Shown here: one piece after another, positions 46,700 to 63,376 of the stretch
How the letters are laid out: each line of letters begins with the position of its first letter
Numbering within the stretch: the stretch's first letter is position 1
DNA from: Candidatus Caldarchaeum sp.
GTDB lineage: Archaea > Thermoproteota > Nitrososphaeria_A > Caldarchaeales > Caldarchaeaceae
Direction of reading: 5' to 3'
Assembly (NCBI GenBank): GCA_038885755.1
Contig: JAVZZH010000001.1
Coordinates: 96,001 to 160,000, forward strand
Length of the DNA: 64,000 nt
The notes under the pieces: generated by a model
Seen by the model: the letters and a program-made list of their open reading frames with translations, nothing else
The model's database searches: none
What the model was told of the DNA's origin: nothing
Program-made: the position numbers and the translations under genes

Positions 46700-46814
46700 C
46701 AAGACCGTATCAGAGAGCTGAACACGATGAACTCTGCAAAAACACGAGATATTTAAATGTTGAAAACCGACTCGGCGAAAAGTAGATAAAACCAGGAAAA
46801 CAACCATTGAGTGT

Positions 46815-46887
46815 AGCCCCGTCGTCTAGCGGCCAAGGATGCAGGGCTTTGGACCCTGCGACGTGGGTTCAAATCCCACCGGGGCTA
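46815..46887 (+). tRNA. tRNA-Gln(TTG), intronless
   Basis: Acceptor AGCCCCG/CGGGGCT with the A1-U72 pair typical of archaeal tRNA-Gln; anticodon arm CAGGG-CTTTGGA-CCCTG; T arm GTGGG-TTCAAAT-CCCAC. Confidence 0.96.
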
Positions 46888-47194
46888 AGAGAAACAGCAT
46901 GGCCTAAAACCCACCGAATACCTAGGTGTCTATGCACCCTGCTGGGGGGACTAATCTTTTCGGATAGGGCTACGCTAAGCCATGTTCCACCACTTGGAAA
47001 AGAAGAGCGGCTACCAGGGCCCTCTACAACGGGCCAGCAGCCGATCCCGAGTTTTATTGCGGCCGGAGCAATGATCTCAATCCTCTGCAGTCTTTTTCAC
47101 CACCACAGATGTATTAAGGTTTCAAAGCCTTCCCGTTCTGAAAATAGACCTATCACCCACCCACGTATAGCCAAGCACGTGTATCGCTAGCGGT

Positions 47195-47461
47195 ATGGTC
47201 TGGAGAACCCAGTATGACTGCGGACATGTTGACTATGGGCTACCGCTGGTTCGGGGTTTCCATAGACTCGTCGCAGTAACGGGACCGGCGGACATATGGC
47301 AGGTGGGCCTCCCCATCATAGTCTATGACCTTGTCTTCTGGCTGGCGTTATTGGTTGTGGGGAGCTGGTGGGGTGGGCTGAGTCTAGGAGAAAAGGATAA
47401 TTTCCATGCTGGTCTCTGCAACTGTGGTTGCCTGTGGCTCAGAAGCTGGGGATTAGGATAG
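47195..47461 (+). CDS. Small hypothetical membrane protein, possibly degraded
   Basis: HVDYGLPL..., one hydrophobic segment (YDLVFWLALLVV). Confidence 0.3.
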   Translation: MVWRTQYDCGHVDYGLPLVRGFHRLVAVTGPADIWQVGLPIIVYDLVFWLALLVVGSWWGGLSLGEKDNFHAGLCNCGCLWLRSWGLG

Positions 47462-48183
47462 TTGAGTTGGGCGACGTGGGATCCACGATGGCTGAGGCGA
47501 GAAACTTAGGCGCCGTGGATGAGGGGACGGTTTTGGTGGCTAGAAGCCAGACAGCTGGTGTGGGAAGGCTGGGACGTAGGTGGTACTCACCAACCGGCGG
47601 ACTATGGTTCACGATGATAATATACCCGAGGCAGAGCGCAACCACATCACCGCTGCTAACGCTGATGGCCGCGCTAGCCGTCAGCAGGGGAATAGCCCTA
47701 ACCACAGGCCTCCAGCCAACCATAAGATGGCCTAACGATGTCTACCTCCGCGGCCGGAAGGTGGCCGGCATACTTGCTGAGATGGATGTGGTGGGAGATA
47801 TTGCGACTAGGGCGCTGGTGGGTGTGGGTGTCAACGTCAACTTCAACATTGAGGAGCTTCCACCCGACGTCAGGGGCGAGGCCACCACGCTCATGCATGA
47901 GTTGGGCTCCGAGGTCAGCCTCGAGCTGCTGCTGGCCAATATATTATCGGAGTTTGGAAAGCTCTACGACTCTTTCAAGGCGGGCAGGAGGGTTGAGATA
48001 ATGAAGGATGTTAAGCATGCTATGCAGATGTTGGGCGAGACTGTGAACGTAACCCTTTCACATGGCACCCGGCTGAAAGGTGTTATGGAGGATTTGGATG
48101 AGCTGGGCAGGGTGGTTTTGAAGTTGGACCAAGGTAGGATGTTCCTCTCTCCAGGCGACATTGAGAGGATAGCCACGCTCTAG
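47428..48183 (+). CDS. birA: Biotin-protein ligase (class I, no HTH)
   Basis: QTAGVGRLGRRW, WPND, KVAGIL, GVGVN. Confidence 0.93.
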   Translation: MPVAQKLGIRIVELGDVGSTMAEARNLGAVDEGTVLVARSQTAGVGRLGRRWYSPTGGLWFTMIIYPRQSATTSPLLTLMAALAVSRGIALTTGLQPTIRWPNDVYLRGRKVAGILAEMDVVGDIATRALVGVGVNVNFNIEELPPDVRGEATTLMHELGSEVSLELLLANILSEFGKLYDSFKAGRRVEIMKDVKHAMQMLGETVNVTLSHGTRLKGVMEDLDELGRVVLKLDQGRMFLSPGDIERIATL

Positions 48184-48344
48184 AAACGTTTCTGAGCAGG
48201 TTATGCTGCGGTGAATCCATGCGTGAGCCACAGCATCTAGGGATGTGGAACAGCGGGTTGTAGTTGCCGGAGGTCCAGCCCGTGTGGTCTATACGCTAAG
48301 AAAATGATTTATATAAGGGTCTCGCGATCCTAGCCGCGAGCGAA

Positions 48345-49652
48345 TTGAAAGAAGACGACCTATCTCGCCTCAGGAAGTATGTGAGCTCGGGAATATCACC
48401 ACTTCATCCAATAGTTTTATCCAAGGCCTCCAACGCAATAGTCCAAGACACTGCTGGGAGGCGGTACATAGACTTCACAAGCGGCATAGGCGTAACCAAC
48501 CTGGGCCACGCCAACCCTGAGCTAGTTCAAACCCTGAAGGAGCAGGCTGAGAAGCTGTGGCATATGGCAATACCGGTTGCGGCCTACGAATCAGTTATAA
48601 ACCTTGCAGCAAGCTTAACAGAGATAGCTCCAGGAGCATATCAGAAGAAGGCCGTGTTCTTCAACAGCGGTGCAGAGGCTGTGGAGAATGCGGTGAAAGC
48701 AGTCAGAAAGGCGACCAAACGGCAGATAATCATAGCTTTCGAAAACTCCTTCCACGGCAGGACAGCTCTCACCATGGCCCTCACTGGAAAGTACATGCCT
48801 TACAAGGTTGACTTCGAACCCTTCGCACCCGGTGTGGAGCTGGTCCCCTATCCTTACTGCTACCGATGCCCCTTCGGCCACGAGTATCCACCCTGTTGTA
48901 TGCAGACAGTGGAATATCTTAGGAATCATTTTGTACACACCAGGGTTCATGGTGATAAGGTAGCCGCTGTTATAGCTGAGCCTATTCAGGGCGAAGGCGG
49001 ATTCATAGTTCCGCCTGACAACTTCTTCAAGGAGTTGAAATCCTTTCTTGACGAGTATGGCATCAAGTTGATTGTTGATGAGGTGCAGACCGGGTTTGGG
49101 AGGACTGGGAAGATGTTTGCGGTGGAGCATTTCGGAGTAGAGCCCGACCTGATTACTGTGGGGAAGGCTATAGCCAACGGCCTTCCGTTATCTGGTGTTG
49201 TTGGGAGAGCTGAGATTCTTGACAGCCTGCATCCCGGCGGGTTTGGCGGGACTTACGTGGGCAACCCCGTGGCCTGCGCTGTAGCCACGAAGGTCATTGA
49301 GATTTTCAGGCGTGAAAGACTCCATGAGAGGGCGGCTAGACTTGGCGCTTTAGCTGAGAAGAAGCTCCGTGAGATGTTCGACGAGTATCCGCTGATAGGC
49401 GATGTGCGGGGGAAGGGGCTGATGCTGGCCATGGAGCTGGTCGCGGACAGGCGGTCAAAGAAGCCGGCCGAGAAAGCAACGAGGCTGGTTGTGGAGAAGG
49501 CGAGGCAGAGGGGTCTGCTGCTGCTGAAAGCCGGTCTCTATAACAACGTCATCCGTCTCCATCCACCTATAACAATAGAGGATGAGACGTTTGCGAGTGG
49601 GTTGGACATACTGGAGGAAACGGTCAAGGAAGTTTCCAAAGAAGAAAGCTAG
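48345..49652 (+). CDS. gabT: Class III aminotransferase (4-aminobutyrate / beta-alanine aminotransferase-like)
   Basis: NSGAEAVENA, FHGRT, EPIQGEGG, DEVQTGFGRTG, GK, GGT. Confidence 0.85.
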   Translation: MKEDDLSRLRKYVSSGISPLHPIVLSKASNAIVQDTAGRRYIDFTSGIGVTNLGHANPELVQTLKEQAEKLWHMAIPVAAYESVINLAASLTEIAPGAYQKKAVFFNSGAEAVENAVKAVRKATKRQIIIAFENSFHGRTALTMALTGKYMPYKVDFEPFAPGVELVPYPYCYRCPFGHEYPPCCMQTVEYLRNHFVHTRVHGDKVAAVIAEPIQGEGGFIVPPDNFFKELKSFLDEYGIKLIVDEVQTGFGRTGKMFAVEHFGVEPDLITVGKAIANGLPLSGVVGRAEILDSLHPGGFGGTYVGNPVACAVATKVIEIFRRERLHERAARLGALAEKKLREMFDEYPLIGDVRGKGLMLAMELVADRRSKKPAEKATRLVVEKARQRGLLLLKAGLYNNVIRLHPPITIEDETFASGLDILEETVKEVSKEES

Positions 49653-50221
49653 GCGGGGCCGACATATCTACTCACCGCATCTACTATTTGACGCCTAGTC
49701 GAGACGTAGACCGCTACCACGGCCTTCACCGCATCCCACACTAGAAATGGTATCATGCCAAGGGCAGCTGCCTGAGAAAGACTATCCATGGCCGGCAACC
49801 CCCTGCTGAGGGCTAGCCATGCGGCCAGCCATGGGACACCAACTAAGTATATCAGGGCCTCGGCGGCCGCAGCGCCAGCCACCGCTCCCACAATCTTCCC
49901 CAGTCCTATGCGCCGGTAGACGTAGCCCGATAGGGCTGCGGCAAAAGGGAAAGCTAGGAGATACCCGCCGGTGGGCCCTAGGAAGACACCCCACCCGCCC
50001 CTGAAGTTAGCGAAGACGGGAAGCCCAACAGCGCCCATCAGTAGGTAGACTACGATTGATAAGAACCCTACACGCGGACCGCCAACCATTCCTGCCAAGA
50101 GAATGAAGAGTGTCTGAAATGTGAAGGGTACGGTCGATGTGGGGATAGAAAGCGGGGACGCGGCAGCGGTCAAAGCTGCGAAAAATATGGACAAGACAAG
50201 CTGTTGTCTTCTCAGAGTCAA
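49649..50221 (-). CDS. bioY: Biotin transporter BioY
   Basis: VPFTFQ, GLPVF, GPTGGYL, PF..D. Confidence 0.93.
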   Translation of the reverse strand: MTLRRQQLVLSIFFAALTAAASPLSIPTSTVPFTFQTLFILLAGMVGGPRVGFLSIVVYLLMGAVGLPVFANFRGGWGVFLGPTGGYLLAFPFAAALSGYVYRRIGLGKIVGAVAGAAAAEALIYLVGVPWLAAWLALSRGLPAMDSLSQAAALGMIPFLVWDAVKAVVAVYVSTRRQIVDAVSRYVGPA

Positions 50222-50387
50222 CTCGACAGGAGCGCACGAGGGATGTATATAGATTTTTCAGAGTATTATCGGTGTTCCGCAGATTTTATTAACGTTTGTT
50301 AAAATCCATCGAGCTATGTAATGGCATATCTAGCGTGGGGGAGATTTGTCAAAATGCTTATATATCTTCTATTAACCCTTAAACACG

Positions 50388-51905
50388 ATGGTTAGGAAAA
50401 AGTTCGAATATCACATATCCAACGCATCCGAAGTTTCAGCTGCATCGACAGATCCCGCCTCATACACACCGCCTGTAGCCAGAGTTAGCAGGAGAACAGT
50501 CTTGGGGATTGGAGCCGCAGCTGCTGTGGTGGCGGTTGCTGGAGGCGTGGCGGCGTTCTTGGCATCGCGTCCACCAACCCAACCCACGACACAGACAACA
50601 CCAACAGCTACTACGCCAGCCCAGATAACGCTAAGGACCAACGAACAGTCATACATGGTGGATGAGAACAAGATAAAGGCCTTCAAAGAGCAGGTGGGCA
50701 TTCAGCTGGAGGCAGATATACGACCAATAGATGAGGCTCGCGCGATAATGCTGGACCCAGCCAACGCCTCAAAATACGATATCTACGGCATAGACACCAG
50801 CAGCCTCTTGGCGATAAAAGCTGCTGGCGTTACGAAAAACTATCCCCCCAGCGATGTTCCGAGGTGGGTTAGGGGCCCCATTGATCCAATATTCACCGCA
50901 CCAGAGACCAACATAGGAACTAAGGTGCCTCCACCAATCGGCCCAACAGGCGAATACATAGCCAAGAGTATGATGTATCCAACCATGTGGGCTGCCTCAC
51001 CAGATGCGACCAACAAGATGGATGACTATGGAATGAAGGACAAGCTCTTCTTCATATCTCCGATTGACTGGAACTACGACTCGGTGCTCTGGAATCCCAA
51101 GTATATCAACCTACCTTATGACCCGGCCACAGGCATATCCACTGGCTCTTGGGGGGTTCTTGTTGACCGCCAGTACAAAGGCAGGGTTGGCTTCCAAGAC
51201 ATTCCAACGATCTCCACCAACCATTACATACTGATAATGATAGCAAACAAGCTGATAGAGCCACTGGAACGGGGACCAAACGACTTAACCCCCGCTGAGA
51301 TTAAGAAGCTGGTGGACTGGCTTATCGACCACAAGAAGGCGGGCCAGTTCAGGGTATTCTGGAACGACTTCGCCCAGATAGTGAGCCTCCACGTGCAGGA
51401 GGAGATCTGGGTTTCCGACGGCTGGCAGCCAGTTGAGATGTATGTACGCAACAGCGGCGGCATAGGGTTCTACCTAGAGCCCAACGAAGGATACCGGAAC
51501 TGGCTGGATGGCGTCGCACCGACGATAGCTACACCCAACTACGCCGCAGTCATGAATTACATCGACTGGAAGTACAGCGGATGGTTCGCCCAGTATAAGG
51601 CTAAGTGGCTTGGCTACTATACTCCAAACTGGGAGTCGGATGAGGTTAAGCAGACGATGGGGCCGGAGCACTGGGGCTGGTTCTACAAAGCCGACCCAAC
51701 CTTCATAGAAGTGCCTGTGGAGGAGCATGCGGCGTTCGACCCTGTTTCCTACGATTGGAAGATGTCCGGCTCACCCAACCCCAAGGGATATAGGCGGGAC
51801 GGCGGAGACATCAAAAGGCATAACGAGAGGGTTTCCACTTGGCAGCGGTGGCCTCACGACGCTGACGCCTATATAAAGGAGTGGACTAGGCTCAGAGCTG
51901 CTTGA
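50388..51905 (+). CDS. PotD/PotF-like ABC substrate-binding protein with Tat signal
   Basis: Twin-arginine SRRTVL plus hydrophobic helix and Thr/Pro linker; EGYRNW, RDGG; heads the ABC operon. Confidence 0.85.
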   Translation: MVRKKFEYHISNASEVSAASTDPASYTPPVARVSRRTVLGIGAAAAVVAVAGGVAAFLASRPPTQPTTQTTPTATTPAQITLRTNEQSYMVDENKIKAFKEQVGIQLEADIRPIDEARAIMLDPANASKYDIYGIDTSSLLAIKAAGVTKNYPPSDVPRWVRGPIDPIFTAPETNIGTKVPPPIGPTGEYIAKSMMYPTMWAASPDATNKMDDYGMKDKLFFISPIDWNYDSVLWNPKYINLPYDPATGISTGSWGVLVDRQYKGRVGFQDIPTISTNHYILIMIANKLIEPLERGPNDLTPAEIKKLVDWLIDHKKAGQFRVFWNDFAQIVSLHVQEEIWVSDGWQPVEMYVRNSGGIGFYLEPNEGYRNWLDGVAPTIATPNYAAVMNYIDWKYSGWFAQYKAKWLGYYTPNWESDEVKQTMGPEHWGWFYKADPTFIEVPVEEHAAFDPVSYDWKMSGSPNPKGYRRDGGDIKRHNERVSTWQRWPHDADAYIKEWTRLRAA

Positions 51906-51933
51906 AATCCACCATCCTCCCCTTTTTCGGGTT

Positions 51934-53052
51934 TTGCCAATGTCCAACAGTGTGGAAGCTGAAAACCTGACAAAGAGATTTGGAAAAACAGTTGCCGTGA
52001 ATAACGTATCCTTTAAGATCAGGAAGGGCGAGTTCTTCTGCATCATAGGGCCGAGCGGATGTGGTAAGACGACAACACTCAGGCTTGTGGCCGGCCTTAT
52101 ACGGCCCGACAGCGGCAAGATATACATAAATGGCGTGGACTACACCAACGTCCCAACACACAAGCGGCCACTGTCAATGGTTTTCCAGACATGGGCGCTT
52201 TTCCCCCACATGACGGTTTATGAGAATGTTGAGTTCGGCCTCAAGATGCGTAATTTAAGCGAGGCCGAGAGGAGGGAGGCCATCAAGTGGGCTTTAGGAC
52301 TTGTTAAGATGGAGGATTTCGCCCACCGGAAGCCTAGAGAGCTTAGCGGGGGGCAGCAGCAACGCGTGGGTATAGCGAGGGCATTGGTGGTCAGGCCTGA
52401 GATACTGTTGTTGGACGAGCCCCTGGGCAACCTCGACTTCAAGCTCCAGCTATGGCTACAGGAGGAGTTGAAGCGGATTCACAAGGTTACTGGCGTTACA
52501 TTCCTGTATGTCACGCATGACCAGAGACAGGCTATGGCGATGGGTGACACGATTATGGTTATGAACATGGGTGTTATCGAGCAGATGGGAACACCTATTG
52601 AACTCTACTCAAACCCCAGCAGTGTGTTTGTAGCCAAGTTCGTGGGCGAGTCCAACATACTCGAGGGAATGGTGAGAGCGGTCGAGGGTGGAAAAGCCTT
52701 GGTGGAGACCCCGCTCACTAACTTTCATCTCCCCAACAACGAGGTTAAGACCGGTGACAGGGTCTGGGTCTTCTGGCGGCCAGAGGACACTTACTTAGGA
52801 CGGGACGCTGAGAGCTCTGAATACAAGTTCAACGGCGAGGTTGTGGACGTGACTACGGCCGGGTCGGTCACAAACTATAAGATTTCAGTCGGCGGACATT
52901 TATTGAAAGCAACGGTTAAGGGTCTCCCGATGGACGGCGTGGAAGCAGGTTCCAAGATACTGCTGGGATGCAAGAATTCATGCCTGAAGCTGATCACTAA
53001 GGCAAGCTCCAGCGGCTTGGCAGATGTTGAGCGGATAATATTGGGCGAGTGA
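51934..53052 (+). CDS. ABC transporter ATPase (PotA-like, with TOBE domain)
   Basis: GPSGCGKT, LSGGQQQR, LLLDEP, VTHD. Confidence 0.95.
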   Translation: MPMSNSVEAENLTKRFGKTVAVNNVSFKIRKGEFFCIIGPSGCGKTTTLRLVAGLIRPDSGKIYINGVDYTNVPTHKRPLSMVFQTWALFPHMTVYENVEFGLKMRNLSEAERREAIKWALGLVKMEDFAHRKPRELSGGQQQRVGIARALVVRPEILLLDEPLGNLDFKLQLWLQEELKRIHKVTGVTFLYVTHDQRQAMAMGDTIMVMNMGVIEQMGTPIELYSNPSSVFVAKFVGESNILEGMVRAVEGGKALVETPLTNFHLPNNEVKTGDRVWVFWRPEDTYLGRDAESSEYKFNGEVVDVTTAGSVTNYKISVGGHLLKATVKGLPMDGVEAGSKILLGCKNSCLKLITKASSSGLADVERIILGE

Positions 53053-53055
53053 AAG

Positions 53056-53922
53056 ATGGGTGAGGCTGCCGCACGACAGAGAACGATAACCCCATACCTG
53101 CTGATGGGGCCTATGTTGGCGACGATAATCGTCTTCCTAGTCGTCCCCTTGGTGATGGTTGGGATTGTCAGCTTCTACACACCCACGGGAACAGGCTACG
53201 CACCCGTTGTGAACGTGGCCAGCTATGTCAGGTTTTTCACTGATCCTACCATATACGGGATTCTCCTCAACACACTAGCCTATTCAGCAATAGTGACGGT
53301 TATGGCCTTCATACTGGCCTACCCGATCGCATACTTCCTGACCATGAAGGTCAGGACCTTCAGGGCCAAGACAATACTGCTGATAGCCATGCTGATACCG
53401 TTCTGGATAGACTTCACAACCCGAGCCCTCTCATGGATTCCATGGCTGGGGATACAGGGAATCATCAACCAAGTTCTGATAAGACTCGGAATACTCCAGG
53501 AGCCCTCACCCATATTCCTCTTCTCACCATTCGCCATGCTCCTCGTCATGATTCAGGGCTATACTCTATTCATGATAGCCCCTATCTTCATAGTTATGAG
53601 CAAGATAGATCCAATACTGTATGAGGCCGCTAAAGTCCTCGGAGCATCACCTATAAAAACCTTCTACCACATCAACCTGAGACTCTCACTGCCCGGAATC
53701 GGTGTGGGAACAGTCTTCGTCTTTCTGTCCGCCGTTGCCGATTTCGCAACCCCACGGTTGATAGGCGGCCTGGTCACGAGCATAGGCCAGGTTATCAGGG
53801 ACCAGGTCGTCTTCCTTAACTTACCGCTCGCCTCCGCAATATCCGTGGTCCTCACTATGATTGCGTTAGCTATAGTGATGACGGTGTTCAAGCTCATGAA
53901 TATTAGGCAGGTATTCGAGTAG
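53056..53922 (+). CDS. ABC permease (PotB-like)
   Basis: Six TM segments; EAAKVLGAS loop. Confidence 0.92.
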   Translation: MGEAAARQRTITPYLLMGPMLATIIVFLVVPLVMVGIVSFYTPTGTGYAPVVNVASYVRFFTDPTIYGILLNTLAYSAIVTVMAFILAYPIAYFLTMKVRTFRAKTILLIAMLIPFWIDFTTRALSWIPWLGIQGIINQVLIRLGILQEPSPIFLFSPFAMLLVMIQGYTLFMIAPIFIVMSKIDPILYEAAKVLGASPIKTFYHINLRLSLPGIGVGTVFVFLSAVADFATPRLIGGLVTSIGQVIRDQVVFLNLPLASAISVVLTMIALAIVMTVFKLMNIRQVFE

Positions 53923-53933
53923 GAGGGGCTGGC

Positions 53934-54728
53934 ATGGCTAGGGACGTATCGAAGATAATACTCGCCCTCTACACCGCTGGCATGGTCTTCTTCATATACG
54001 CACCGATAATCACCATGGTACTCTTCTCATTCAACGGCTCGCCTAGGACTGTACCACCGTTCGACGGGCCAAGCCTGAGATGGTACGAGGTACTCTTCAG
54101 TCAGAAGGTTGTATTGCTGGAGGCCTTCACTAGGTCGATCCTGCTAGCTATCCTGACGATGGTGATAGCAACGCCGCTATTCACTTTTGCAGGACTAGCC
54201 TATAGGAAGCGGTTCAAGGGTGATGAGTTTGCCTTCTACCTGGTTACTATAGGCATAATCATGCCCGGGATAACCTACAGCCTAGGCGTCCTGATATTCT
54301 ATAATACCCTGGGAATGAACGTGTCTCTTTGGACAGGGCTCCCAGTCCACCTCGTCTGGTCTGTCCCATGGGGTCTAATACTAGTGAGGGCTATGATAGA
54401 CCCAAACATCATATATTATGAGGAGGCGGCCAAGACCTTGGGCGCCAGCGACTGGCAGATCTTCAGAAGAATAACCCTCCCCCTCTTCATCCCAGCTATA
54501 TTGGGTGGAGCCCTGTTCGCCTTCACCCTCTCGTTTACAGAGCTCATACGAAGCATCTTCGTAGTATCACCTAATACGCTGCCCTTACAAGTCTTGGCTG
54601 AGGTGACTGTCTGGGGTGTCTCACCCTACATATTCGCCATCGGAAGCCTCATAGTAATCATCTCCCTGGCACTTCTCCTGTTGGCCGGCTTTCTGTTGAG
54701 GGGCGTTTTTGAGAAGCTCCAGATATGA
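53934..54728 (+). CDS. ABC permease (PotC-like)
   Basis: SLRWY, EEAAKTLGAS, FTLSF. Confidence 0.92.
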   Translation: MARDVSKIILALYTAGMVFFIYAPIITMVLFSFNGSPRTVPPFDGPSLRWYEVLFSQKVVLLEAFTRSILLAILTMVIATPLFTFAGLAYRKRFKGDEFAFYLVTIGIIMPGITYSLGVLIFYNTLGMNVSLWTGLPVHLVWSVPWGLILVRAMIDPNIIYYEEAAKTLGASDWQIFRRITLPLFIPAILGGALFAFTLSFTELIRSIFVVSPNTLPLQVLAEVTVWGVSPYIFAIGSLIVIISLALLLLAGFLLRGVFEKLQI

Positions 54729-54767
54729 GATCCACTCAATGGGTCAGAGGCTTGGGTTGAGGTCCAG

Positions 54768-56549
54768 ATGTCTAGGGTGAGACCGACCGACATACCTTCC
54801 GAAAGCCAGATGATAGTATCCTCCATCATCAAGGAGCAGCTGGAACAAGAAAAGGTCAAGTATACTGGTTTCCAGAGGGGTACGATTCTAAAGGACTATG
54901 CTAGGGTTGTGGAGAAAGACCCCGTCCTATTCCACAGCGAATACGTCGTAAGGTTCACGTATGACATGGTGAGGACCGCCATCGGCCCTTTCGGACAGGA
55001 TAAGATGGTCTCAAAAGATTTAGGGGACTCTCCGCCCACGAGGCATGTCTTCATCACCAACGACATATACGAGTTCTTAAGCCTCCTCGAGTTTAAGCAT
55101 CCCATAGCTAAGATTGTGGTGGACTTGGCCAAGTCAGTTGACTCTGAGGTGGGCGACGGTGTGGCAACTTCGGTCCTGCTGGGTTGCTCGCTCGTCCTTC
55201 GTGGATGTGAGCTAGTTAGACATGGCCTGCATCCCACAACGGTTGTTGACGGCTATGCCAGGGCCCTTAAATTAAGCTTGTTAAGCTTGGAGAGAAACTC
55301 AGTAGCAGTCTCTATGCATGATGAGCGGCTCCTAGAGTCTGTCGCATCCTCGGCCATAAGGAACAAGTCCGCCGAAGGTATAGAGCCCGACGTGGTCAGG
55401 CGTGTAGTTAAAGTCTTCAACAATCTTAGAAACTCTGCCGGTAGCTATCTCGACCTAGCCAATCTGAAGATTGAAAGGACCATAGGGTCATCCCTTGAGG
55501 AGACAATTTTCGTTGACGGCGTGATTCTAAGGAATGAGGTTATACATGATGGTATGCCCAAGAGGGTAGTGGACGGGAAAGTAGCCCTCATATCCAAGCC
55601 GATAGTCACCCGCGACTTTAACAAGCCCATAGGCTATGACGATGTAGTGTTTGAGTTTGAGGAGCCAACCGCATATAGAAGCTATTCGAGTTATAGGGAG
55701 AAAGTTCTCAGAGAGGCTGCCAGCCATATCATCGCCTCGGGTGCAAGCGTCCTTTTCCTCAGTCAGGGGATAGATGAGATAGCTATAGACCTTCTGGTGA
55801 AGAAGGGTATTCTAGCGGTTAGGAGGATAGTCCCCGAAGACATGGAAAGGCTGGCGAGAGCCACCAAAGGCATAATAGTGGCAACTCCATCCCAGCTCAG
55901 GCCCGAGCATCTTGGGAGGGCCCGGCTTGTGGAGGAGAAGAAGATAGGTGATAGCGAGTGGGTCTTCGTCGTTGGTGTGGGTGGTGGAGGTCCACAATCC
56001 ATACTGTTGACAGCCCCTCACGATGAGTATGCCAGGGATGCTGAGCACCTGTTGATGAATTCGCTGAGGGCGCTGGCAAGCCTCCAGAGGGAGCCACGTG
56101 TTGTTGCGGGTGGCGGAGTAGCTCTCTTTGACGCTGCGGTGAATTTGAGGGAATGGGCTTGGAGTGAGGCGGGTAAGACCCCGCTTGCTGTGGAGAAGTT
56201 TGCAGATGCTTTGGAGGATGTCCACAAATCCATTGTGGAGAACGCCGGATATGACGCATTAGAGGTAGCTGCCGAGGTGAGGCGGATGCATGCTGCCGGA
56301 GTCCATGATTATGGGTTTGATGTGATGACGGGCCAGTACGCCCGCTTCATATCAGAGGGTATTCTAGATCCGCTCCCTGTTGTTAGGCAGGCCTTGGTCG
56401 CGGCTTTCGAGTTCGCTGTTCTTGTCCTGAGGACAGACGGCATATACTACATACCGAGGACGAGGAGAGAACTGATGGAGAAGAGAAAGGCTGAGAGGAA
56501 GAGGAAGGGGAAGAGGCCTGGAGACTGGGTTGAGGAGAAACAGTACTAA
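54768..56549 (+). CDS. Divergent group II chaperonin (thermosome-like subunit)
   Basis: GP.G.DKM, ITND, HP.AK, EVGDG, G.HPT, MPKRV, GI.AVRR, VAGGG, ENAG, GILDP. Confidence 0.9.
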   Translation: MSRVRPTDIPSESQMIVSSIIKEQLEQEKVKYTGFQRGTILKDYARVVEKDPVLFHSEYVVRFTYDMVRTAIGPFGQDKMVSKDLGDSPPTRHVFITNDIYEFLSLLEFKHPIAKIVVDLAKSVDSEVGDGVATSVLLGCSLVLRGCELVRHGLHPTTVVDGYARALKLSLLSLERNSVAVSMHDERLLESVASSAIRNKSAEGIEPDVVRRVVKVFNNLRNSAGSYLDLANLKIERTIGSSLEETIFVDGVILRNEVIHDGMPKRVVDGKVALISKPIVTRDFNKPIGYDDVVFEFEEPTAYRSYSSYREKVLREAASHIIASGASVLFLSQGIDEIAIDLLVKKGILAVRRIVPEDMERLARATKGIIVATPSQLRPEHLGRARLVEEKKIGDSEWVFVVGVGGGGPQSILLTAPHDEYARDAEHLLMNSLRALASLQREPRVVAGGGVALFDAAVNLREWAWSEAGKTPLAVEKFADALEDVHKSIVENAGYDALEVAAEVRRMHAAGVHDYGFDVMTGQYARFISEGILDPLPVVRQALVAAFEFAVLVLRTDGIYYIPRTRRELMEKRKAERKRKGKRPGDWVEEKQY

Positions 56550-56557
56550 CTGATACC

Positions 56558-56853
56558 GTCAAGTTATCTTTAGGGGGGTTTGTGAAGCCGCTTTTTGTAG
56601 GTGGTGTTCATCAGGTGGCTTAAAGCTCTTGAGAATAGTGGTAAGGGCCCCGGGATTGCTGAAGCCCTTAAGCCCCCGCCTTAACAGATTCGTAGAACCT
56701 TCGGCGAGAGCAACAGCGTTGAAAGATGGTTTAGAGGCCATGACTGGACGCTTCTCCAACAACTTCCTAGTTAAGGCTCTTCATCTAATGGTGTAGCTTC
56801 ATGAAGCCGCATCAGAACCCTGAAAAGGTCGATAGCAACGCCAATCACTTGAT
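56558..56853 (+). mobile_element. Internally deleted IS6-family remnant (MITE-like)
   Basis: Residual transposase peptide RTFGESNSVERWFR..(fs)..RFSNNF; imperfect inverted ends TCAAGTTAT (56559) and ATCACTTGA (56844). Confidence 0.6.
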
Positions 56854-56889
56854 AACGCTTAAATATTACACGTATACTCCTAATAATAT

Positions 56890-57771
56890 ATGGCTGAGAA
56901 GGAGATATTTGTTGGTTTTGGGGTTGACGTGGATGCCGTTGCTGGTTGGATAGGCTCCTACGGAGGTGAGGACTCGCCGTCAGACATACAACGTGGCATC
57001 TTCGCGGGTGAAGTTGGGACGCCGCGGCTTTTGAAGCTCTTTAAAAAGGTTGGGTTGAAGACAAGTTGGTTTTGGCCAGGACATTCGATAGAGACGTTCC
57101 CCGAGCAGTTCAGGATGTGTGTCGATGAGGGGCATGAGATAGGAGCCCACGGATACACACATGAGAACCCGATAGCTATGACGCCCGAGCAGGAGGAGGC
57201 GGTTCTGGCCAAGTGTGTATCGCTCATAAAAGCTGAGACAGGTAAGAGCCCCCGCGGCTATGTGGCTCCGTGGTGGGAGATGTCTAACAACACTATAGAC
57301 CTACTGCTGAAGTATGGCTTCAAATACGACCACAGTCAGCACCATCATGACTTCCAGCCCTACTACGCTAGAAGGAGGGACACATGGACAAAGATAGACT
57401 ATTCGAAGCACCCCGATACTTGGATGAAACCGCTCATTAGAGGGGCTGAGGTTGACCTCGTGGAAATACCCGGCAACTGGTATATGGATGACCTGCCGCC
57501 CATGATGTTCATAAAGAAAGCGCCCAACAGTCATGGGTGGGTAAGCCCGAGAGATATCGAGATTTTGTGGAGAGACCAGTTCGACTGGGTTTACCGGGAG
57601 TATGACTACGCAGTCTACTGTTTCACAATACATCCCGATGTCAGCGGCAGGCCTCAGAACCTTCTGATGCTCGAGAGGCTGATAAGATACATCAACAAAC
57701 ATAGGGGCGTTATCTGGGCTACGATGGAGGAGATAGCTGAAGATTTTCGAAGGAGACATCCACGTAAGTGA
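56890..57771 (+). CDS. Polysaccharide deacetylase (CE4) family, HP0310/PgdA-like; putative cyclic imide/amide hydrolase
   Basis: [49 protein letters not shown]. Confidence 0.9.
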
Positions 57772-57789
57772 GCTTCATCTTTTTTCTTT

Positions 57790-58629
57790 CTATGTTTGCT
57801 GGACTAGCTCGCTGTATAGCTCGGGCGACCTATCCCTCAGAAACGGTGCATATCTGCGTCTCTCCCTTACAAAATCAAGGTCCAGTTCATGGACCAGGAC
57901 ATACTCCTCACTGGGTGCAATGGCAAGCCGTTCTCCCTTAGGATTGAATATGCAGCTTTTTCCAAAATACGTGGCTGGCTGCTCTGGAAACTCTCTCCCA
58001 CACCTGTTAACGCCGCAGACATATATTGTGTTGAATGCGGCGTGGGCTGCCAGCTCCAGCTCCCACAGCTCTGGATAAAGGCCGGTGCATGTTGGTACGA
58101 AAACTATTTCCGCTCCCTTAACAGCCATTATCCGGGGTCCTTCGGGGAAGTGCCTGTCATAGCAAATTATCACGCCAAACCTAACACCCTGGTCTTGGAA
58201 GACTGGGTATCCTAAGTTGCCCATCCTGAAGTAGAATTTCTCACTGTATCCGATGAGCTGGGGTATGTGGGTCTTCCGATACTTCCCGATAAGCTCGCCC
58301 CTGTGGCTGATTATGGCTGCGGTGTTGTAGAAGGTTCCAGGAACAGTTGTGTCCTCTTCAAACATAGGAGCTATGACTGTGACACCGTATTTATTGGCCG
58401 CCTCAGCCAGCTTGGCTGTGGTGGGTCCGGGTATAGGTTCGGCCAGTGAGAAGAACTCGATCCTCTGCTGCACGGCGAAGTATTGAGAGAAGAATAGCTC
58501 CTGCAGACATACGATCTTGGCGCCCTTTCCAGCAGCCTCACCTATGAGACCCACCGCCTTATCCACGTTCCTCTCCTTCTCCTTCTCCGCGTTCATCTGG
58601 ATGAGTCCTACCTTGACTGTGCGGCCCAT
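57790..58629 (-). CDS. Nitrilase-superfamily amidohydrolase (beta-ureidopropionase/N-carbamoylputrescine amidase-like)
   Basis: Glu-Lys-Cys triad in LQELF, YRKTHIP and ICYDRHFPE; EKFYF. Confidence 0.9.
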   Translation of the reverse strand: MGRTVKVGLIQMNAEKEKERNVDKAVGLIGEAAGKGAKIVCLQELFFSQYFAVQQRIEFFSLAEPIPGPTTAKLAEAANKYGVTVIAPMFEEDTTVPGTFYNTAAIISHRGELIGKYRKTHIPQLIGYSEKFYFRMGNLGYPVFQDQGVRFGVIICYDRHFPEGPRIMAVKGAEIVFVPTCTGLYPELWELELAAHAAFNTIYVCGVNRCGREFPEQPATYFGKSCIFNPKGERLAIAPSEEYVLVHELDLDFVRERRRYAPFLRDRSPELYSELVQQT

Positions 58630-58633
58630 TGTG

Positions 58634-59662
58634 TCAACTCATTTTAGGCTGATATTTATAACTGTCGGATATCTCGCCAGCAATGTTAGAGAGCATAAGG
58701 CTTCTCACATCCCCTCCCTGCCCCAAACACCACATGAGTTTGACCAGGGCGGTTTCCGGCAGCATGTCAGAAGTTGGAATGATGTTTTTGACGGCTAGAA
58801 TCTTCTTATCCAGAGCATATACACCCAGCTTCTCACCACCGTAGAGGCATTGTGTGGTAATGACGACAGGCCTCCCATAGTCCTCCACCACACCGATGAA
58901 TTTATCGTCGCTCTTTATGTGGCCGAGTCCGGTGCCCTCCACCACTACACCGTCGTAGAGTGATAAGATTTTAGCCATAGCCTCGTCTGTTAGGGATGGA
59001 GTCATTTTTATCAGCCCCACGTTGGGGTTGAGCTCCGTCTTCAGATATGCTCTGCTCTCCCCCCTTCTGACTCTTTTCTTCACATCGAGATGTATGGTCT
59101 CACCCACCACATGTCCGAGAGGTTCCTCATTTACGCTGGCGAATGCGTTTAAAGCGTGGGAGTGGATCTTCTTGGCCCTCGTCCCCTTGATGATCACTTT
59201 TCTCCCTCCGAACGCGTCCTCTGAGAAGACCACGCAAACATGGCCCAGATCTGCATACGCTGCAACTCTTAGAGCTGCCTTGACATTACCCGGTCCATCG
59301 CTGCCTGGGTTGCCTCCCGGTATCATAGCACCTGTCAAGACAACCGGGACCTCTGGATATCCCAGCATGAAGCTGAGGGCGGAGGCCGTATACTGCAGAG
59401 TGTCGGTTCCATGTAAGACCACCACACCGTCCACACCCTCTTGGAGAGATTTGTAGACAGAATTGGCCACGGCCTGCCAGTCGCTAGGTGTGAAGTCGAA
59501 GCTGGCCTTCACCATTATCTCCCGTATCTCATAGTCCACGCCCTCCACGGATATTTCAGGGAATGTCTGCTTGTAGGATAGTATCTCGGCGCCTGCCTTG
59601 GCGTCAAATGTCTTAGACAGTATGGTCCCGCCGGTGGCTAGGACATGTACATGCTTGGCCAT
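58634..59662 (-). CDS. L-asparaginase-family (type I/GatD-like) amidohydrolase
   Basis: ATGGTI, HGTDT, K.HS, GTGLGH, DM.PETA.VKL.W; start moved to ATG 59662. Confidence 0.88.
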   Translation of the reverse strand: MAKHVHVLATGGTILSKTFDAKAGAEILSYKQTFPEISVEGVDYEIREIMVKASFDFTPSDWQAVANSVYKSLQEGVDGVVVLHGTDTLQYTASALSFMLGYPEVPVVLTGAMIPGGNPGSDGPGNVKAALRVAAYADLGHVCVVFSEDAFGGRKVIIKGTRAKKIHSHALNAFASVNEEPLGHVVGETIHLDVKKRVRRGESRAYLKTELNPNVGLIKMTPSLTDEAMAKILSLYDGVVVEGTGLGHIKSDDKFIGVVEDYGRPVVITTQCLYGGEKLGVYALDKKILAVKNIIPTSDMLPETALVKLMWCLGQGGDVRSLMLSNIAGEISDSYKYQPKMS

Positions 59663-59679
59663 GGCTATGAAAAACTCAC

Positions 59680-59697
59680 TAACAATATTTATTGTTA
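59680..59697. promoter_or_regulatory. Perfect inverted repeat in the divergent promoter region
   Basis: TAACAAT-ATTT-ATTGTTA between the asparaginase-like and cyclodeaminase-like genes. Confidence 0.4.
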
Positions 59698-59762
59698 AGT
59701 GTGCCGGCGCCAAAGCCATATATCAACGCCGCGGCAGCCCACCCGCGACGGATTGGCAGCAT

Positions 59763-60725
59763 ATGATTGTTAGCGGTGATGAGATGAAGGGTCTTGTCTC
59801 CATGGATGAGGTGATATCTCTTGTGGAGCAGGCTTATGCTGCTCATGCAAGGGGGCTATGTATCATGCAGCCGAAGACCCAGCTAATCATAGAGAAGTAC
59901 TCTGGCGAGTGGGAGGCCATGCCATCCTATCTAGGAGAGCCGGAATCATCAGCATGTAAGTGGGTGGCTATCAGGGAGAGGAATAGGGAGAGTTTCGGAC
60001 CCCCCACAGTCATGTCCACCGTAGTATACACTGACCCGGAGACGGGATACTCGCTGATGATTTGTGACGGCACCTATCACACAAATATGCGGACAGAAGC
60101 CGCTGCGGCGGTCTCAGCTAAGTGGATGGCGAGGCGGGACTCCAAAGTGGCTGTCGGAACACTTAGGGCCCTGAATAGCTTGAACATGTTTAGGAAAGTG
60201 CTGGTGTGGAGTGGGAATAGGGAGAATGCTGACAGCTTCGTCGAACGTATGCAGGCGGAGGTGTCGATGGAACTTGCAGTTGTTAACAGCGTCCGCGATG
60301 TGGTGGCTGACTCGGATGTGGTTGTTACCCAGACACCCGCTACTGAGCCGGTGGTTAAGGATGAGTGGGTGCGGGAGGGGACACATATCGCAGTCATGGG
60401 TGCCGACATGGAGGGTAAGCAGGAGCTTGAGGGTAAGCTGCTGAAGAGGAGCCGTATCTTCGTGGACGACTTGAGTCAGTGTATTAGGGACGGGGAGATT
60501 AATGTCCCGCTCAGGAAGGGTGAGGTCAGGGTTGAGGACGTGGCGGGAACCATCGGCGAGATAATAATAGGTAGGAAGATAGGAAGGCTCTCCCAAGACG
60601 ATATCACTGTCTTCGACTCCACTGTAATAGCTCTGCGGGACGCCGCTGTAACCACGCTTGAGTATAAACGGGCTAGGGAAAGGGGTGTGGGCGTGGAGAA
60701 GAGGATGATCGTATCGCAAACCTAG
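59763..60725 (+). pseudogene. Alanine dehydrogenase/ornithine cyclodeaminase-like gene with in-frame loss of the Rossmann motif
   Basis: The ORF is intact but reads ARRDSKV-AVGTLRAL with no GxGxxA; RTEAA and FDSTVIALRD replace RTGAA and FDSTGLA.QD. Confidence 0.65.
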
Positions 60726-61960
60726 GAAGCCAGCTGGAGGATAGTGTGTAGGAGAACGTTGGCTCCCGCTTCAACGTCTCTAGGCTCGGTCCACTCATCA
60801 GGCGCATGGCTGACTCCATCACGGCTCGGAACAAATATCATGCCCACATCAGCTATCCTAGCCATGTTCTGGGTATCGTGAACAGCGCCGCTTGGCATCA
60901 ACCTGTGGCTGATACCCAGCTTCTCCACAGATGCCAGTATCGCCTCCATCACTGTTTTAGACATAGGTGTCGGCTCCAGTCTCGCCCGCTCAGTAACGGT
61001 GTAGGATAGTCCAAGCCCCTTGAGGGTCTCGTCCACATACTCCAAAATCCTCTTCCTAGACTCGCTGAGGCGCTCCCGCGATATATCCCTGAAGTCGATG
61101 CTCATCTCAGCCTTGTTGGATATCACGTTGATGGCGGAGGGATATACTCGGATCAAGCCTACAGTGCCGAAAACACCCGCCCCAGCCTCCCTAGCCATTC
61201 TATTGATCTCGAGAGCAATCCTAGAGACGCCTATCACCGGGTCTCTCCTGAACTCCATGGGAGTTGTCCCCGCATGGCCCGACCTTCCGACAATCTCCAG
61301 CAGCCACTGGCTTATCCCGGCGATGCCTTGAACAACCCCGATACTTTCCCCCTTGCTGTGAAGCAATGGTCCCTGCTCTATATGTAGCTCGACCCAGGCC
61401 TTGAACTCACCCCGCCTTCTCACCGGCTCCGATAGATGCTCCGGTTCCAGCCCACCCCTTCTCAGAGCCTCCAAGTATGTGATTCCTGAGTCATCTGTTT
61501 GGCTGTAAGCCTCTTCAAGCTTCAGGCTCCCTGTGGCAACCCTGCTGCCAGTCATGAGGGGGAACCTGACACCCTCCTCATTACTGAACGATATGAGCTC
61601 CAGGGGATGTCTAGTGGTTATGTTGTAAGCGTTCAGCGTCCTTATCACTTCAAGTCCTGAGAGGACGCCTAGACAGCCGTCGAACATTCCGGCGTTGGGC
61701 ACAGTGTCTATGTGGGAGCCTAGCCCCACCACGGGCAGGGAGTTATCCTCTCCCTTCCTACGTCCTAATATGTTGCCCGCTCTGTCTATGCGGACTTCGA
61801 GCCCCGCTTCACGCATCTTGGATATTAGGAGGCTCCTAGCCCTGTGGTCCTCCATGCTGAGCGCGAGCCTCGTCCTACCCCCTCCCGCTGTCTCACCTAT
61901 CTTACTGAACTCAATCAGGTCTGACCAGATCCTGTCTAGGGAAACCCTGGGATCGGTCAG
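60722..61960 (-). CDS. Zn-dependent M20 N-carbamoyl-amino-acid amidohydrolase (HyuC/beta-ureidopropionase type), probable CTG start
   Basis: GSHIDTVP.AG.FDG..G, NEEG.RF, ELHIEQGP, HAGTTPM, SGA.HD, SH.PDE; family-like N-terminus (RIWSDL..FS.IG...GG.TRLALS) extends upstream of ATG 61855. Confidence 0.88.
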   Translation of the reverse strand: MTDPRVSLDRIWSDLIEFSKIGETAGGGRTRLALSMEDHRARSLLISKMREAGLEVRIDRAGNILGRRKGEDNSLPVVGLGSHIDTVPNAGMFDGCLGVLSGLEVIRTLNAYNITTRHPLELISFSNEEGVRFPLMTGSRVATGSLKLEEAYSQTDDSGITYLEALRRGGLEPEHLSEPVRRRGEFKAWVELHIEQGPLLHSKGESIGVVQGIAGISQWLLEIVGRSGHAGTTPMEFRRDPVIGVSRIALEINRMAREAGAGVFGTVGLIRVYPSAINVISNKAEMSIDFRDISRERLSESRKRILEYVDETLKGLGLSYTVTERARLEPTPMSKTVMEAILASVEKLGISHRLMPSGAVHDTQNMARIADVGMIFVPSRDGVSHAPDEWTEPRDVEAGANVLLHTILQLAS

Positions 61961-61966
61961 CGTTGT

Positions 61967-63376
61967 TCACCTAGCGCTGTTGAGGACTTGCTCATCTATC
62001 TTGGCCTTCACAAACCGTCCTATGCCAGGCCTCCCCAGGAACTGTTCGTTATCCACTATTATTTCACCACGGAGGATGGTCATGGACGGCCAGCCTTTAA
62101 CCCTCATACCCTCGTAAACACTTAGGTCAGTCCCCATGTGTAGATTCTTGGCGTCTAAGGAGTGCTCCCTGTTGGGATCTATTATGACTAAGTCCGCGTC
62201 CGCGCCGGGAGCTATCACACCCTTCTGAGGATAGAGGCCGAATATCTTGGCGGCGTTTGTGCTTACCACATCAACAAATCGTGTTAGGGTCATCCCACGC
62301 CTGATCACCCCCTCGTAGAACATGAGTGGGACGCGTACTTCCGAGCCTGGGAACCCATTGGGTATCTTGGTGAATATTCCAGCGAACTCCTCCTTCTGGC
62401 TCTTGGTGAATGCCACGTGGTCGGAGCCTATGGTCTGGATCTTGCCTCCCATCACAGCCCGCCATAACGCCTCCACATCCTCTTTCTTCCTTAGAGGTGG
62501 GCTGCACATGTAGTATATTCCCCTCTCAGGTGGTTCGAACGTTTCATCCGTTAACACTAGGTAGTGGGGACAAGTCTCCACGAAGACAGGCAGCCCTTTC
62601 AAACGGTACTGGGCCACTATCTCATGCCCCTCACGAGTGGATTGGTGGACAATGTATGTTCTCGCACCTGTTATCTCAGCTATGTTCATCGCCATTAGAA
62701 TAGCTAGGTTCTCCACCATATTGGGCTTGGCTTGGCCGTGGTATCTGGGCTCTACCCTCCCCCCATTCACGAACTCCTCCTGCATCCCCTCACCTATGAA
62801 GCCGTTCTCAGCATGAATAGTGACGACGCCTCCCAGCTCCCTCGCCCTACGCATCACTTGGAAGAGAATCCAGTCATCAGCCATCCAGCCCTGATGCCTG
62901 TATATCATGAAGACCTTGAAACCTGGGACACCATAGTCCATGGCCTCCTTCATACCCTTCATCACCCTGCCCATGTCTGAGAAGTCGCTGATGATCGGCT
63001 TTGTGGTGAAGTCTATCACTGAGAGCTGTCCAGCCCTCTCCATCTGCTTCTTGGTGGCGTCGAGCAGGGACTCGCCCTTCTCCTGGGGTGCAAAGTCGAT
63101 CGTAGTTGTCGTACCGCCGATGGCAGACGCTATAGTACCGATATCCCATGTCTCCCGAGGCTTCGCACCCATAAAATACAGCTCATAGTGGGTGTGGGGA
63201 TCTATCCCGCCGGGTATGACTATTTTGCCACGGGCGTTGACAGTCTTCTCAGCGCTAGCCGAGGCAAGACTACCCACATGAACGATTTTTCCATCTGAGA
63301 CGCCAATATCTGTTTCAGCAACCCATCCGGGACCGACTACAGTTCCCCCGGATATGACCAAATCCAGTCTAGACAA
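61967..63376 (-). CDS. hydA: Dihydropyrimidinase / D-hydantoinase
   Basis: PGGIDPHTH, GGTTT..DF, FKVFM, HAEN, ETCPHYL, SPPLR, GSDH, IPNG. Confidence 0.92.
   Translation of the reverse strand: MSRLDLVISGGTVVGPGWVAETDIGVSDGKIVHVGSLASASAEKTVNARGKIVIPGGIDPHTHYELYFMGAKPRETWDIGTIASAIGGTTTTIDFAPQEKGESLLDATKKQMERAGQLSVIDFTTKPIISDFSDMGRVMKGMKEAMDYGVPGFKVFMIYRHQGWMADDWILFQVMRRARELGGVVTIHAENGFIGEGMQEEFVNGGRVEPRYHGQAKPNMVENLAILMAMNIAEITGARTYIVHQSTREGHEIVAQYRLKGLPVFVETCPHYLVLTDETFEPPERGIYYMCSPPLRKKEDVEALWRAVMGGKIQTIGSDHVAFTKSQKEEFAGIFTKIPNGFPGSEVRVPLMFYEGVIRRGMTLTRFVDVVSTNAAKIFGLYPQKGVIAPGADADLVIIDPNREHSLDAKNLHMGTDLSVYEGMRVKGWPSMTILRGEIIVDNEQFLGRPGIGRFVKAKIDEQVLNSAR

Follow-up and report, generated by a model that had tools for sequence, protein, structure and literature searches.

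We analysed a stretch of 64,000 nucleotides from a Candidatus Caldarchaeum genome (G000; positions 96001 to 160000 of contig C1, in the following referred to as the window) and identified a block of 11 genes (positions 50388 to 63376) that starts with the gene for a substrate-binding protein and ends with a hydantoinase gene. It seems rather probable that this block takes up a small cyclic compound of the amide or ureide kind (similar to a hydantoin, dihydropyrimidine or lactam) and removes its nitrogen in successive hydrolytic steps, that a chaperonin paralog with a degenerate ATP site is part of the importer operon and that the adjacent biotin genes birA and bioY are related to the block by position. 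Of all elements, the conserved pair of importer and chaperonin paralog is the most interesting. The G000 assembly comprises 1.33 Mb on 10 contigs and is 86.5% complete. Genes were called with an open reading frame (ORF) listing and with Pfam and NCBIfam scans, in which bit scores were compared with the curated model cut-offs (Table 1). The original prediction for this DNA, an island for cyclic amide and ureide catabolism bundled with biotin supply genes, named genes that could all be recovered at their positions, and its count of five C-N hydrolases is correct. Its list had overlooked the thermosome-like gene between potC and the CE4 hydrolase gene.

The 11 genes are colinear in Archaeon HR01 (G014), where ten of the encoded proteins are 80-90% identical to those of G000 and the chaperonin paralog is 64% identical. 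Between these two genomes the median protein identity is 85.1% for the block and 60.0% (range 37-80%) for 17 other genes, with the limit that genes are not independent samples. A second relative, G017, carries five block genes (80-93% identical) on a 13.6-kb contig. Its BirA is 92% identical to that of G000, thus G017 is simply a close relative and offers no identity contrast. The flank on the binding-protein side in G014 and G017 contains genes for a MaoC-type hydratase, a family III CoA-transferase and an aldehyde dehydrogenase and a PNPOx-like gene, and lacks bioY, the aminotransferase gene and birA; beyond the hydantoinase gene, G014 encodes Nop56 and fibrillarin. None of 12 genomes labelled with the same genus contains the binding protein. 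BirA of the genomes with this label is only 45-47% identical, therefore closeness cannot be judged here from the genus label. Of 301 genomes sampled from the phylum, 12 contain full-length members of this binding-protein family (at least 290 bits). Compared in this way, the block reads as an accessory unit with a different position in different genomes, and transfer between lineages is suggested, not proven. The term island is supported: the block is coherent and accessory, being colinear in G014 at 64-90% identity against a median of 60% and present in few genomes. The DNA sequencing runs that contain the window stretch are hot-spring metagenomes; Archaeon HR01 and a Nitrososphaerota hot-spring bin are among the named relatives of the binding-protein locus, and orthologues of the chaperonin paralog carry the label Candidatus Caldarchaeum.

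To compare neighbourhoods, 19 related loci were collected with a profile of the binding protein. A CE4 gene is present in 11 and an asparaginase-like gene in 10 of them, and these two are the importer's most frequently recurring partners across phyla; M20 and/or hydantoinase genes occur in five. In one metatranscriptome library, contig pieces identical to parts of the genes for the aminotransferase, the binding protein, PotA and PotB, the chaperonin paralog, the CE4 enzyme, the CN-hydrolase and the hydantoinase were found (16 of 24 pieces at least 99% alike). Contigs from RNA libraries are read here as presence, not as transcription. Parts of the block are uncovered in the RNA libraries and only small shares are covered in runs X8, X10 and X11, which is uninformative.

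Of the three Cpn60/TCP-1 genes in G000, two are canonical (634 and 600 bits) and the third is the importer-linked paralog, which is 33-35% identical to them. The paralog scores below all thermosome cut-offs of NCBIfam (380.4 against 400 for beta, 370.7 against 450 for alpha and 357.8 against 671 for TIGR02339) and has an N-terminal extension of about 60 amino acids and a basic C-terminal tail. An AlphaFold2 (AF2) model with a predicted local distance difference test score (pLDDT) of 81.4 showed the three-domain thermosome fold (Foldseek target TM-score, TMt, 0.87-0.90). Orthologues from nine clusters are 49-80% identical to the paralog and canonical thermosomes at most 37%, with a wide gap between both groups. 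Matches in the ESM Atlas belonged to generic Cpn60/TCP-1 clusters only.

Fifteen of the 19 related loci have a thermosome-like gene next to the importer, and the exceptions are two loci from bacteria and two archaeal contigs that stop short of this position. The relatives also carry more distant binding-protein copies (25-28% identical), and a thermosome-like gene adjoins them in 13 of 14 distinct loci. Four of the distant-copy loci were taken at a length of 17-20 kb, and potA-potB-potC, the binding protein and the paralog were found in all four. Altogether, the pairing spans the Nitrososphaerota, a Hecatellales genome and the Halobacteriales. Five haloarchaeal genomes each encode three to four chaperonins with high scores (502-625 bits) and a single one with a low score (305-347 bits), which is the linked one. 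Judged by its neighbours, the paralog is a predicted member of the importer operon.

The ATP site of the linked copies has changed. A set of 25 canonical sequences shares 84 near-invariant columns, of which the linked set from TACK archaea retains 36 and the haloarchaeal one 39. The GDGTT motif reads GDGVA in G000 and in 8/9 TACK-linked copies and [P/Y/T/F]DG[V/I][T/S] in the haloarchaeal copies; the copies from paralogous clusters have other variants without Thr-Thr, and TT is absent from all transporter-linked copies examined. An invariant Asp, which we tentatively take to be D386 of Mm-cpn (PDB titles name a D386A pre-hydrolysis mutant), is replaced by Asn in G000 and in 8/9 TACK-linked copies and by Lys in all 11 haloarchaeal copies; the Hecatellales copy and one of the G014 copies retain it. 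These losses suggest that the paralog probably acts without normal ATP hydrolysis.

Some chaperonin relatives with specialised functions are known: in the eukaryotic chaperonin-like proteins BBS6, BBS10 and BBS12, the ATP site is degenerate and the role specialised. The Caldarchaeum paralog shares the three-domain fold with its lid region with the thermosome, these BBS proteins and the bacterial group III chaperonins. It differs from them in its location inside an operon for an ATP-binding cassette (ABC) importer, in its lineage-specific terminal extensions and in its scores below the curated thermosome cut-offs. In literature searches, covering titles and the beginnings of abstracts, no paper was found that connects a thermosome paralog with an ABC importer or with hydantoin genes. 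We tentatively propose, with some doubt, that group II chaperonin paralogs with a degenerate ATPase form an undescribed class dedicated to hydantoin/lactam importers with a PotD/F-like binding protein of the twin-arginine translocation (Tat) type. Such a paralog might be a private holder or assembly factor or a client-selecting thermosome subunit, and the HP0310 family would then act on an imported small amide and not on the cell wall.

The binding protein belongs to a small family, with 286 matches at E ≤ 1e-3 and 19 at E ≤ 1e-30 among 1.84 billion representatives. Its profile matches PotD and PotF (PotD, E 5.5e-19), and the AF2 model (pLDDT 82.6, with the first 76 residues disordered) has their fold (TMt 0.75-0.80) at 14-17% identity. 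Likewise, the ATPase and the permeases are of the PotABC types, all below the equivalog level (Table 1). In contrast to PotD and PotF, the folded part is about 100 residues longer, a Tat-type anchor is present, no Pfam binding-protein model matched and two presumed acidic polyamine contacts are replaced. The N-terminal region combines a tail with the sequence RKKFEY and the twin-arginine motif SRRTVL with a hydrophobic anchor that is not cleaved and a linker rich in Thr and Pro; the RR pair is kept in at least 90% of 20 aligned members. Members from TACK archaea have a cytoplasmic N-terminal tail with RRKxFEY and the uncleaved anchor, and haloarchaeal members are Tat lipoproteins. The C-terminal motif quoted earlier for the binding protein proved in the family alignment to be a hallmark of the family. 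The RRKxFEY tail was considered as a general docking site for the paralog and was dropped, since the haloarchaeal Tat lipoproteins lack the tail.

The hydantoinase passes the equivalog cut-off of TIGR02033 and its best solved relatives are D-hydantoinases. It adjoins the M20 enzyme, which passes the family model TIGR01879 and has an N-carbamoyl-L-amino-acid hydrolase as its nearest solved relative. For the CN-hydrolase, the nearest PDB entries are an N-carbamoylputrescine amidase and beta-ureidopropionase (129-140 bits for the latter). The matches of the M20 enzyme and the CN-hydrolase as beta-ureidopropionase candidates are not specific for either protein. The product of the OCD-family gene is nearest to the alanine dehydrogenase of Archaeoglobus and to a pyrroline-2-carboxylate reductase. 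In the reductive pyrimidine route, dihydropyrimidinase is followed by beta-ureidopropionase and an aminotransferase, and bacterial hydantoin-utilisation (hyu) clusters usually use a secondary permease. The block resembles both in its hydantoinase beside an M20 enzyme of the hydantoinase/carbamoylase family and in the nitrilase-type carbamoylase candidate. It differs in that import would run through an ABC system whose PotD/F-like binding protein is novel, and in the additional CE4 gene, asparaginase-like gene and thermosome paralog.

The likeness of the CE4 enzyme to HP0310 of Helicobacter pylori, already seen in the original prediction, is real and very strong. The alignment with HP0310 (HpPgdA, PDB 3qbu/4ly4) extends over 291 residues (3-293; E 2.7e-146, 489.7 bits) and matches up the H-x3-H and D-x-D motifs as well as the APWWE loop. 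According to the 2011 structure study (PMC3084791), HP0310 has no polysaccharide groove, was inactive on N-acetylglucosamine (GlcNAc), chitotriose, the N-acetylated forms of putrescine, spermidine and cadaverine, N-acetyl dipeptides and allantoin, and has homologues clustering with genes for "polyamine importers"; its natural substrate was not found there. No natural small-molecule substrate of HP0310 was named in the literature retrieved, as judged by titles and abstract beginnings. The block enzyme differs in that its host is an archaeon and that the genes around it suggest a small substrate, cyclic or an amide, outside the 2011 panel. Archaea are not known to contain murein, hence peptidoglycan is an implausible substrate for it.

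The comparative context is, in our view, the strongest argument for a substrate class. A soil Thaumarchaeota metagenome-assembled genome carries M20, hydantoinase, importer, paralog, CE4, racemase-family and asparaginase genes together, and Halorientalis brevis carries asparaginase, CE4, importer, paralog, hydantoinase and M20 genes together. Asp/Glu/hydantoin racemase genes are present in the related loci L032, L114 and L115. Ten flanking frames from three of the distant-copy loci include a hydantoin racemase, Hydantoinase_A, S-Me-THD-like proteins and two dehydrogenases of the Glu/Leu/Phe/Val type, and one frame has no family; in Halobellus loci, HyuB is located about 5-6 kb from the paralog. 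Thus, three unrelated kinds of ring-opening enzymes occur beside the importer family: D-hydantoinase with M20; HyuA/HyuB with hydantoin racemase and S-Me-THD-like proteins; and the PxpABC type. One importer family with three kinds of ring opening fits a hydantoin-, dihydropyrimidine- or lactam-like cargo, which strengthens the cyclic amide and ureide theme of the original prediction.

Gene identities, kept gene order, recurrent neighbours and motif losses were observed directly. From them we infer which class of substrate is used, in what order the steps proceed and what the paralog may do, as follows. The substrate would be taken up by the membrane-anchored Tat-type binding protein with PotD/F fold and by PotABC. 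Its ring would be opened by the D-hydantoinase/dihydropyrimidinase, and the carbamoyl group would be removed by the M20 and/or the nitrilase-type enzyme, yielding an amino acid, CO2 and NH3. A further small-molecule amide might be hydrolysed by the HP0310-type CE4 and the asparaginase-like enzyme, and the amino acid product might be handled by the alanine dehydrogenase-like enzyme. The paralog might act as a holder or assembly factor whose specific client is the Tat-exported binding protein or the transporter, or it might join the host thermosome as a specialised subunit.

Several points weigh against this proposal. Neither a dihydropyrimidine dehydrogenase nor a hydantoin racemase is encoded in the block, in contrast to hyu clusters and the reductive pyrimidine route. 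In the assembled genome, PF01180 detected a single strong DHO_dh match (209.8 bits, one frame of 341 amino acids, C1:252366-253199) and four weak ones. The CN-hydrolase, the asparaginase, the OCD-family protein, PotA, PotB and PotC and the aminotransferase all score below the curated equivalog cut-offs, so that their exact reactions are putative, and the cargo proposed here is a class of compounds and not one substrate. For HP0310, another study (PMC3688963) reports acetyl-esterase and deacetylase activity on p-nitrophenyl acetate (pNP-acetate), acetylxylan, chitin and chitosan. Constraint instead of transfer could explain the contrast in identity with G014 (85 against 60). The trees disagreed on a single origin of the linked paralogs: 46 rows gave two clades and 24 rows one clade with a support of 64, and a single clade was not rejected in an approximately unbiased (AU) test (p 0.347). 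Finally, the binding-protein residues aligned to W229, W255 and D257 of PotD, presumably polyamine contacts, are kept.

The original prediction went further and placed the block in a wider pathway with a biotin-dependent step, of the urea carboxylase type or of PxpABC with biotin carboxylase, supplied by birA and bioY. For this locus we regard such a step as unlikely; for the family of clusters, the idea has substance. A biotin carboxylase (BC, 447 amino acids), a gene similar to biotin carboxyl carrier protein (BCCP; 101 amino acids, ...GVMKS...), AHS2 and AHS1 lie directly beside the set of importer, paralog, CE4 and asparaginase genes in L038, L045 and L046. In L043 only the end of a BC gene is visible before the contig stops. 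These four of the 19 related loci, in which the BC-BCCP-AHS2-AHS1 genes are embedded, all belong to one haloarchaeal subclade; a class III aminotransferase gene follows in L038, L045 and L046, and L045 has a LamB-like gene. The block-bearing genomes G014 and G017 each contain one separate BC-BCCP-LamB/PxpA-AHS2-AHS1 operon elsewhere, in G014 on the same contig as the aminotransferase-bioY pair and about 13 kb from it. Related clusters can therefore include a biotin-dependent module as a genuine, optional partner. The proposed link between this kind of binding protein, CE4 hydrolases and biotin carboxylases was likewise borne out in haloarchaea and was not seen in the two bacterial loci found.

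In the DNA examined, 15 of the 19 related loci contain no BC or AHS genes. For the assembled G000 genome, PF02785 gave zero matches to biotin carboxylase, and searches by tblastn with haloarchaeal and G014 proteins found no BC, BCCP, AHS1, AHS2 or LamB, in contrast to urea carboxylase and the 5-oxoprolinase-type PxpABC systems. Three Biotin_lipoyl matches were obtained in G000, a 388-amino-acid frame of E2 size and two small proteins with an ETEKAA motif, and by sequence these look lipoyl-type. The earlier statement that no biotin enzyme and no dihydropyrimidine dehydrogenase are visible in the window holds and extends to the 20 kb beyond it and, with the single strong DHO_dh match, to the assembled genome. 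The operon may have been lost from G000 or may sit in the unassembled 13.5%. The bundling with biotin supply genes itself is not conserved. In G014 and G017, birA (71% and 92% identical, respectively) is on a different contig from the block; bioY was found in one of five relatives searched with the G000 protein, again on another contig than the block; and neither gene was detected by tblastn (E ≤ 0.05) within about 10 kb at the 19 related loci. On contig C11 of G014, away from the block, the aminotransferase gene (80% identical) and bioY are kept together, hence this pair is native but lies outside the block. Only in G000 do birA, the aminotransferase gene and bioY adjoin the block, and their relation to it is probably positional, not functional.

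A polyamine transporter would be the conventional reading of a PotABCD-type importer, and together with an AguB-type amidase and a GABA-type aminotransferase it would suggest uptake and breakdown of polyamines, agmatine or N-carbamoylputrescine. PotA, PotB, PotC, N-carbamoylputrescine amidase and GABA transaminase are indeed the best NCBIfam names, and this reading is further favoured by the PotD/PotF fold and the three kept PotD positions mentioned above. However, all these matches are below the cut-offs, the positions aligned to the presumed polyamine contacts D168 and E171 of PotD are neutral in the family profile, and no agmatine deiminase was seen in the block. The neighbours across lineages are hydantoin- and lactam-type enzymes, and HP0310 was inactive on the N-acetylated polyamines in the structure study cited above (PMC3084791). 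Taken together, we consider polyamine breakdown improbable. That an ordinary stress chaperonin subunit is located here by chance within a chance run of unrelated hydrolases is very improbable: the paralog has the full group II fold, several thermosome subunits are common in archaea and the hydrolase genes lie on both strands, yet G000 already has two canonical chaperonins, the pairing with the importer recurs in 15 of 19, 13 of 14 and four of four larger loci from Nitrososphaerota to Halobacteriales, key ATP-site residues are lost and the order of the 11 genes is kept in G014.

Table 1. Genes of the block and its left neighbours. Positions are those of the window; bit scores are followed by the model cut-off where one applies.
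Gene product	Position	Strand	Support	Remark
BirA, biotin-protein ligase	47428-48183	+	TIGR00121 154.7 bits vs 83.1	neighbour, outside the conserved block
Class III aminotransferase, similar to gamma-aminobutyric acid (GABA) aminotransferase	48345-49652	+	PF00202 431 bits; TIGR00700 502 bits vs 506.65 (just under)	outside the block
BioY, biotin transporter S component	49649-50221	-	PF02632 135.8 bits	neighbour, outside the conserved block
Binding protein, small PotD/PotF-fold family	50388-51905	+	no Pfam/NCBIfam match; profile and AF2 model	505 aa
PotA-like ABC ATPase with TOBE domain	51934-53052	+	PF00005 130.6 bits; NF006987 (PotA) 350.7 vs 482	
PotB-like ABC permease	53056-53922	+	NF007044 124.9 bits vs 348	
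PotC-like ABC permease	53934-54728	+	NF007047 137.2 bits vs 326	
Thermosome-like (Cpn60/TCP-1) paralog	54768-56549	+	PF00118 371 bits	593 aa; 39 bases 3' of potC
CE4-family amidohydrolase, HP0310-type	56890-57771	+	PDB 3qbu 489.7 bits; PF01522 68.2 bits	
Nitrilase-superfamily amidase/carbamoylase (CN-hydrolase)	57790-58629	-	PF00795 202 bits; AguB model 227.6 vs 410	
Type I asparaginase-like amidohydrolase	58634-59719	-	PF00710 and PF17763; TIGR00519 244.6 vs 260.5; PDB 5ot0 200 bits	
OCD/mu-crystallin family dehydrogenase	~59760-60725	+	PF02423 242 bits; TIGR02371 292.6 vs 409; PDB 1omo 217 bits, 6t3e 185 bits	start inferred from where the models begin
M20 N-carbamoyl-amino-acid amidohydrolase	60722-61966	-	TIGR01879 401.6 vs 204; PDB 3n5f 317 bits	first ATG 61855
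D-hydantoinase/dihydropyrimidinase	61967-63376	-	TIGR02033 445.3 vs 393.25; PDB 1k1d 364 bits	

The start of the M20 gene is unusual. Directly downstream of the hydantoinase stop codon (TGA, 61967-61969), 37 open codons follow in frame that encode the conserved N-terminal segment of the M20 enzyme (61855-61969), and no ATG, GTG or TTG is present among them before the ATG at 61855. The same in-frame layout of the hydantoinase and M20 genes was observed in G014 (L031 20530-20647), but there a TTG is present. This segment could reflect a non-canonical start, a read-through fusion or an N-terminally shortened enzyme. Two further OCD-family paralogs are encoded in the window (19222-20127 and 25556-26509), which share 34% and 28% identity with the block gene's counterpart in G014. 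Elsewhere in G000, C2:34077-48865 may be a second cyclic-amide locus, with a HyuB-like, an Asp/Glu/hydantoin-racemase-like and a second hydantoinase paralog within 15 kb. A short-chain dehydrogenase is encoded in eight haloarchaeal loci (L036-L039, L043, L045, L046 and L048; 70-77% identical between loci). A second, weaker match (37-44%) is present in seven of the eight and not in L048, whose contig ends inside the binding-protein gene. The G000 block has no short-chain dehydrogenase gene.

Divergent chaperonins are not confined to the importer loci. Four of the six Cpn60/TCP-1 genes of G014 are divergent, and a single divergent copy (389 bits) was also seen in G009, a genome without any member of the binding-protein family. 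Another divergent paralog of 525 amino acids, with GDGGKI and Lys at the Asp column, adjoins the BC-BCCP-LamB-AHS2-AHS1 operon in G014:C11 (L084) and G017:C81 (L085); in G014, this operon and the paralog also adjoin HyuB. In G000, the stand-alone lipoyl-type proteins of 81-97 amino acids (C1:327769-327978 and C3:105293-105502) share the ETEKAA motif; one is encoded beside 2-oxoacid dehydrogenase E1 genes and the other beside an aldehyde dehydrogenase and a luciferase-like monooxygenase. A lone carboxyltransferase is encoded at C1:274242-275567 (PF01039, 322 bits). With no BC or BCCP in the assembly, birA is left without a visible acceptor protein in the assembled genome.

The hydantoinase end of the block is followed by a 4.4-kb stretch (window 63376-64000 onwards; L004 1376-5829, C1:159376-163829) that contains no frame longer than 196 codons. 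Its G+C content is 45-49% compared with about 54%, and the only gene remnant is an HpcH/C-C-lyase-like fragment. It may represent decayed genes at the block edge. Repeats in this stretch were limited to short chance-level matches. Beyond it (L004 5829-12878, C1:163829-170878), a second class III aminotransferase, an aldehyde dehydrogenase, an energy-coupling factor (ECF) T component of the CbiQ family and a fused double ABC ATPase are encoded; the last two could energise BioY. On the other side, a tRNA-Gln (TTG) gene is located upstream of birA (46815-46887) inside a mechanical ORF (46807-47190). No repeat of at least 12 nucleotides of the tRNA-Gln region was found in the next 23 kb, thus no att-like site was seen. 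An Rfam scan (E ≤ 0.1) of 45000-64000 detected the tRNA only and no riboswitch, and Rfam found nothing in the 20 kb beyond the window.

The block defines a small, previously unmodelled family of binding proteins that is tied to hydantoin- or lactam-type catabolism in archaea, and it provides a concrete list of substrates for testing the HP0310 family. The biotin genes show that genes adjoining a catabolic block can mislead, though related clusters do carry a biotin-dependent module. The importer and the thermosome paralog with its degenerate ATP site form a recurring pair; if the coupling is functional, the paralog would be a rare case of a protein with chaperonin fold dedicated to one transport system. 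This coupling is testable in haloarchaea, where genetic tools exist.

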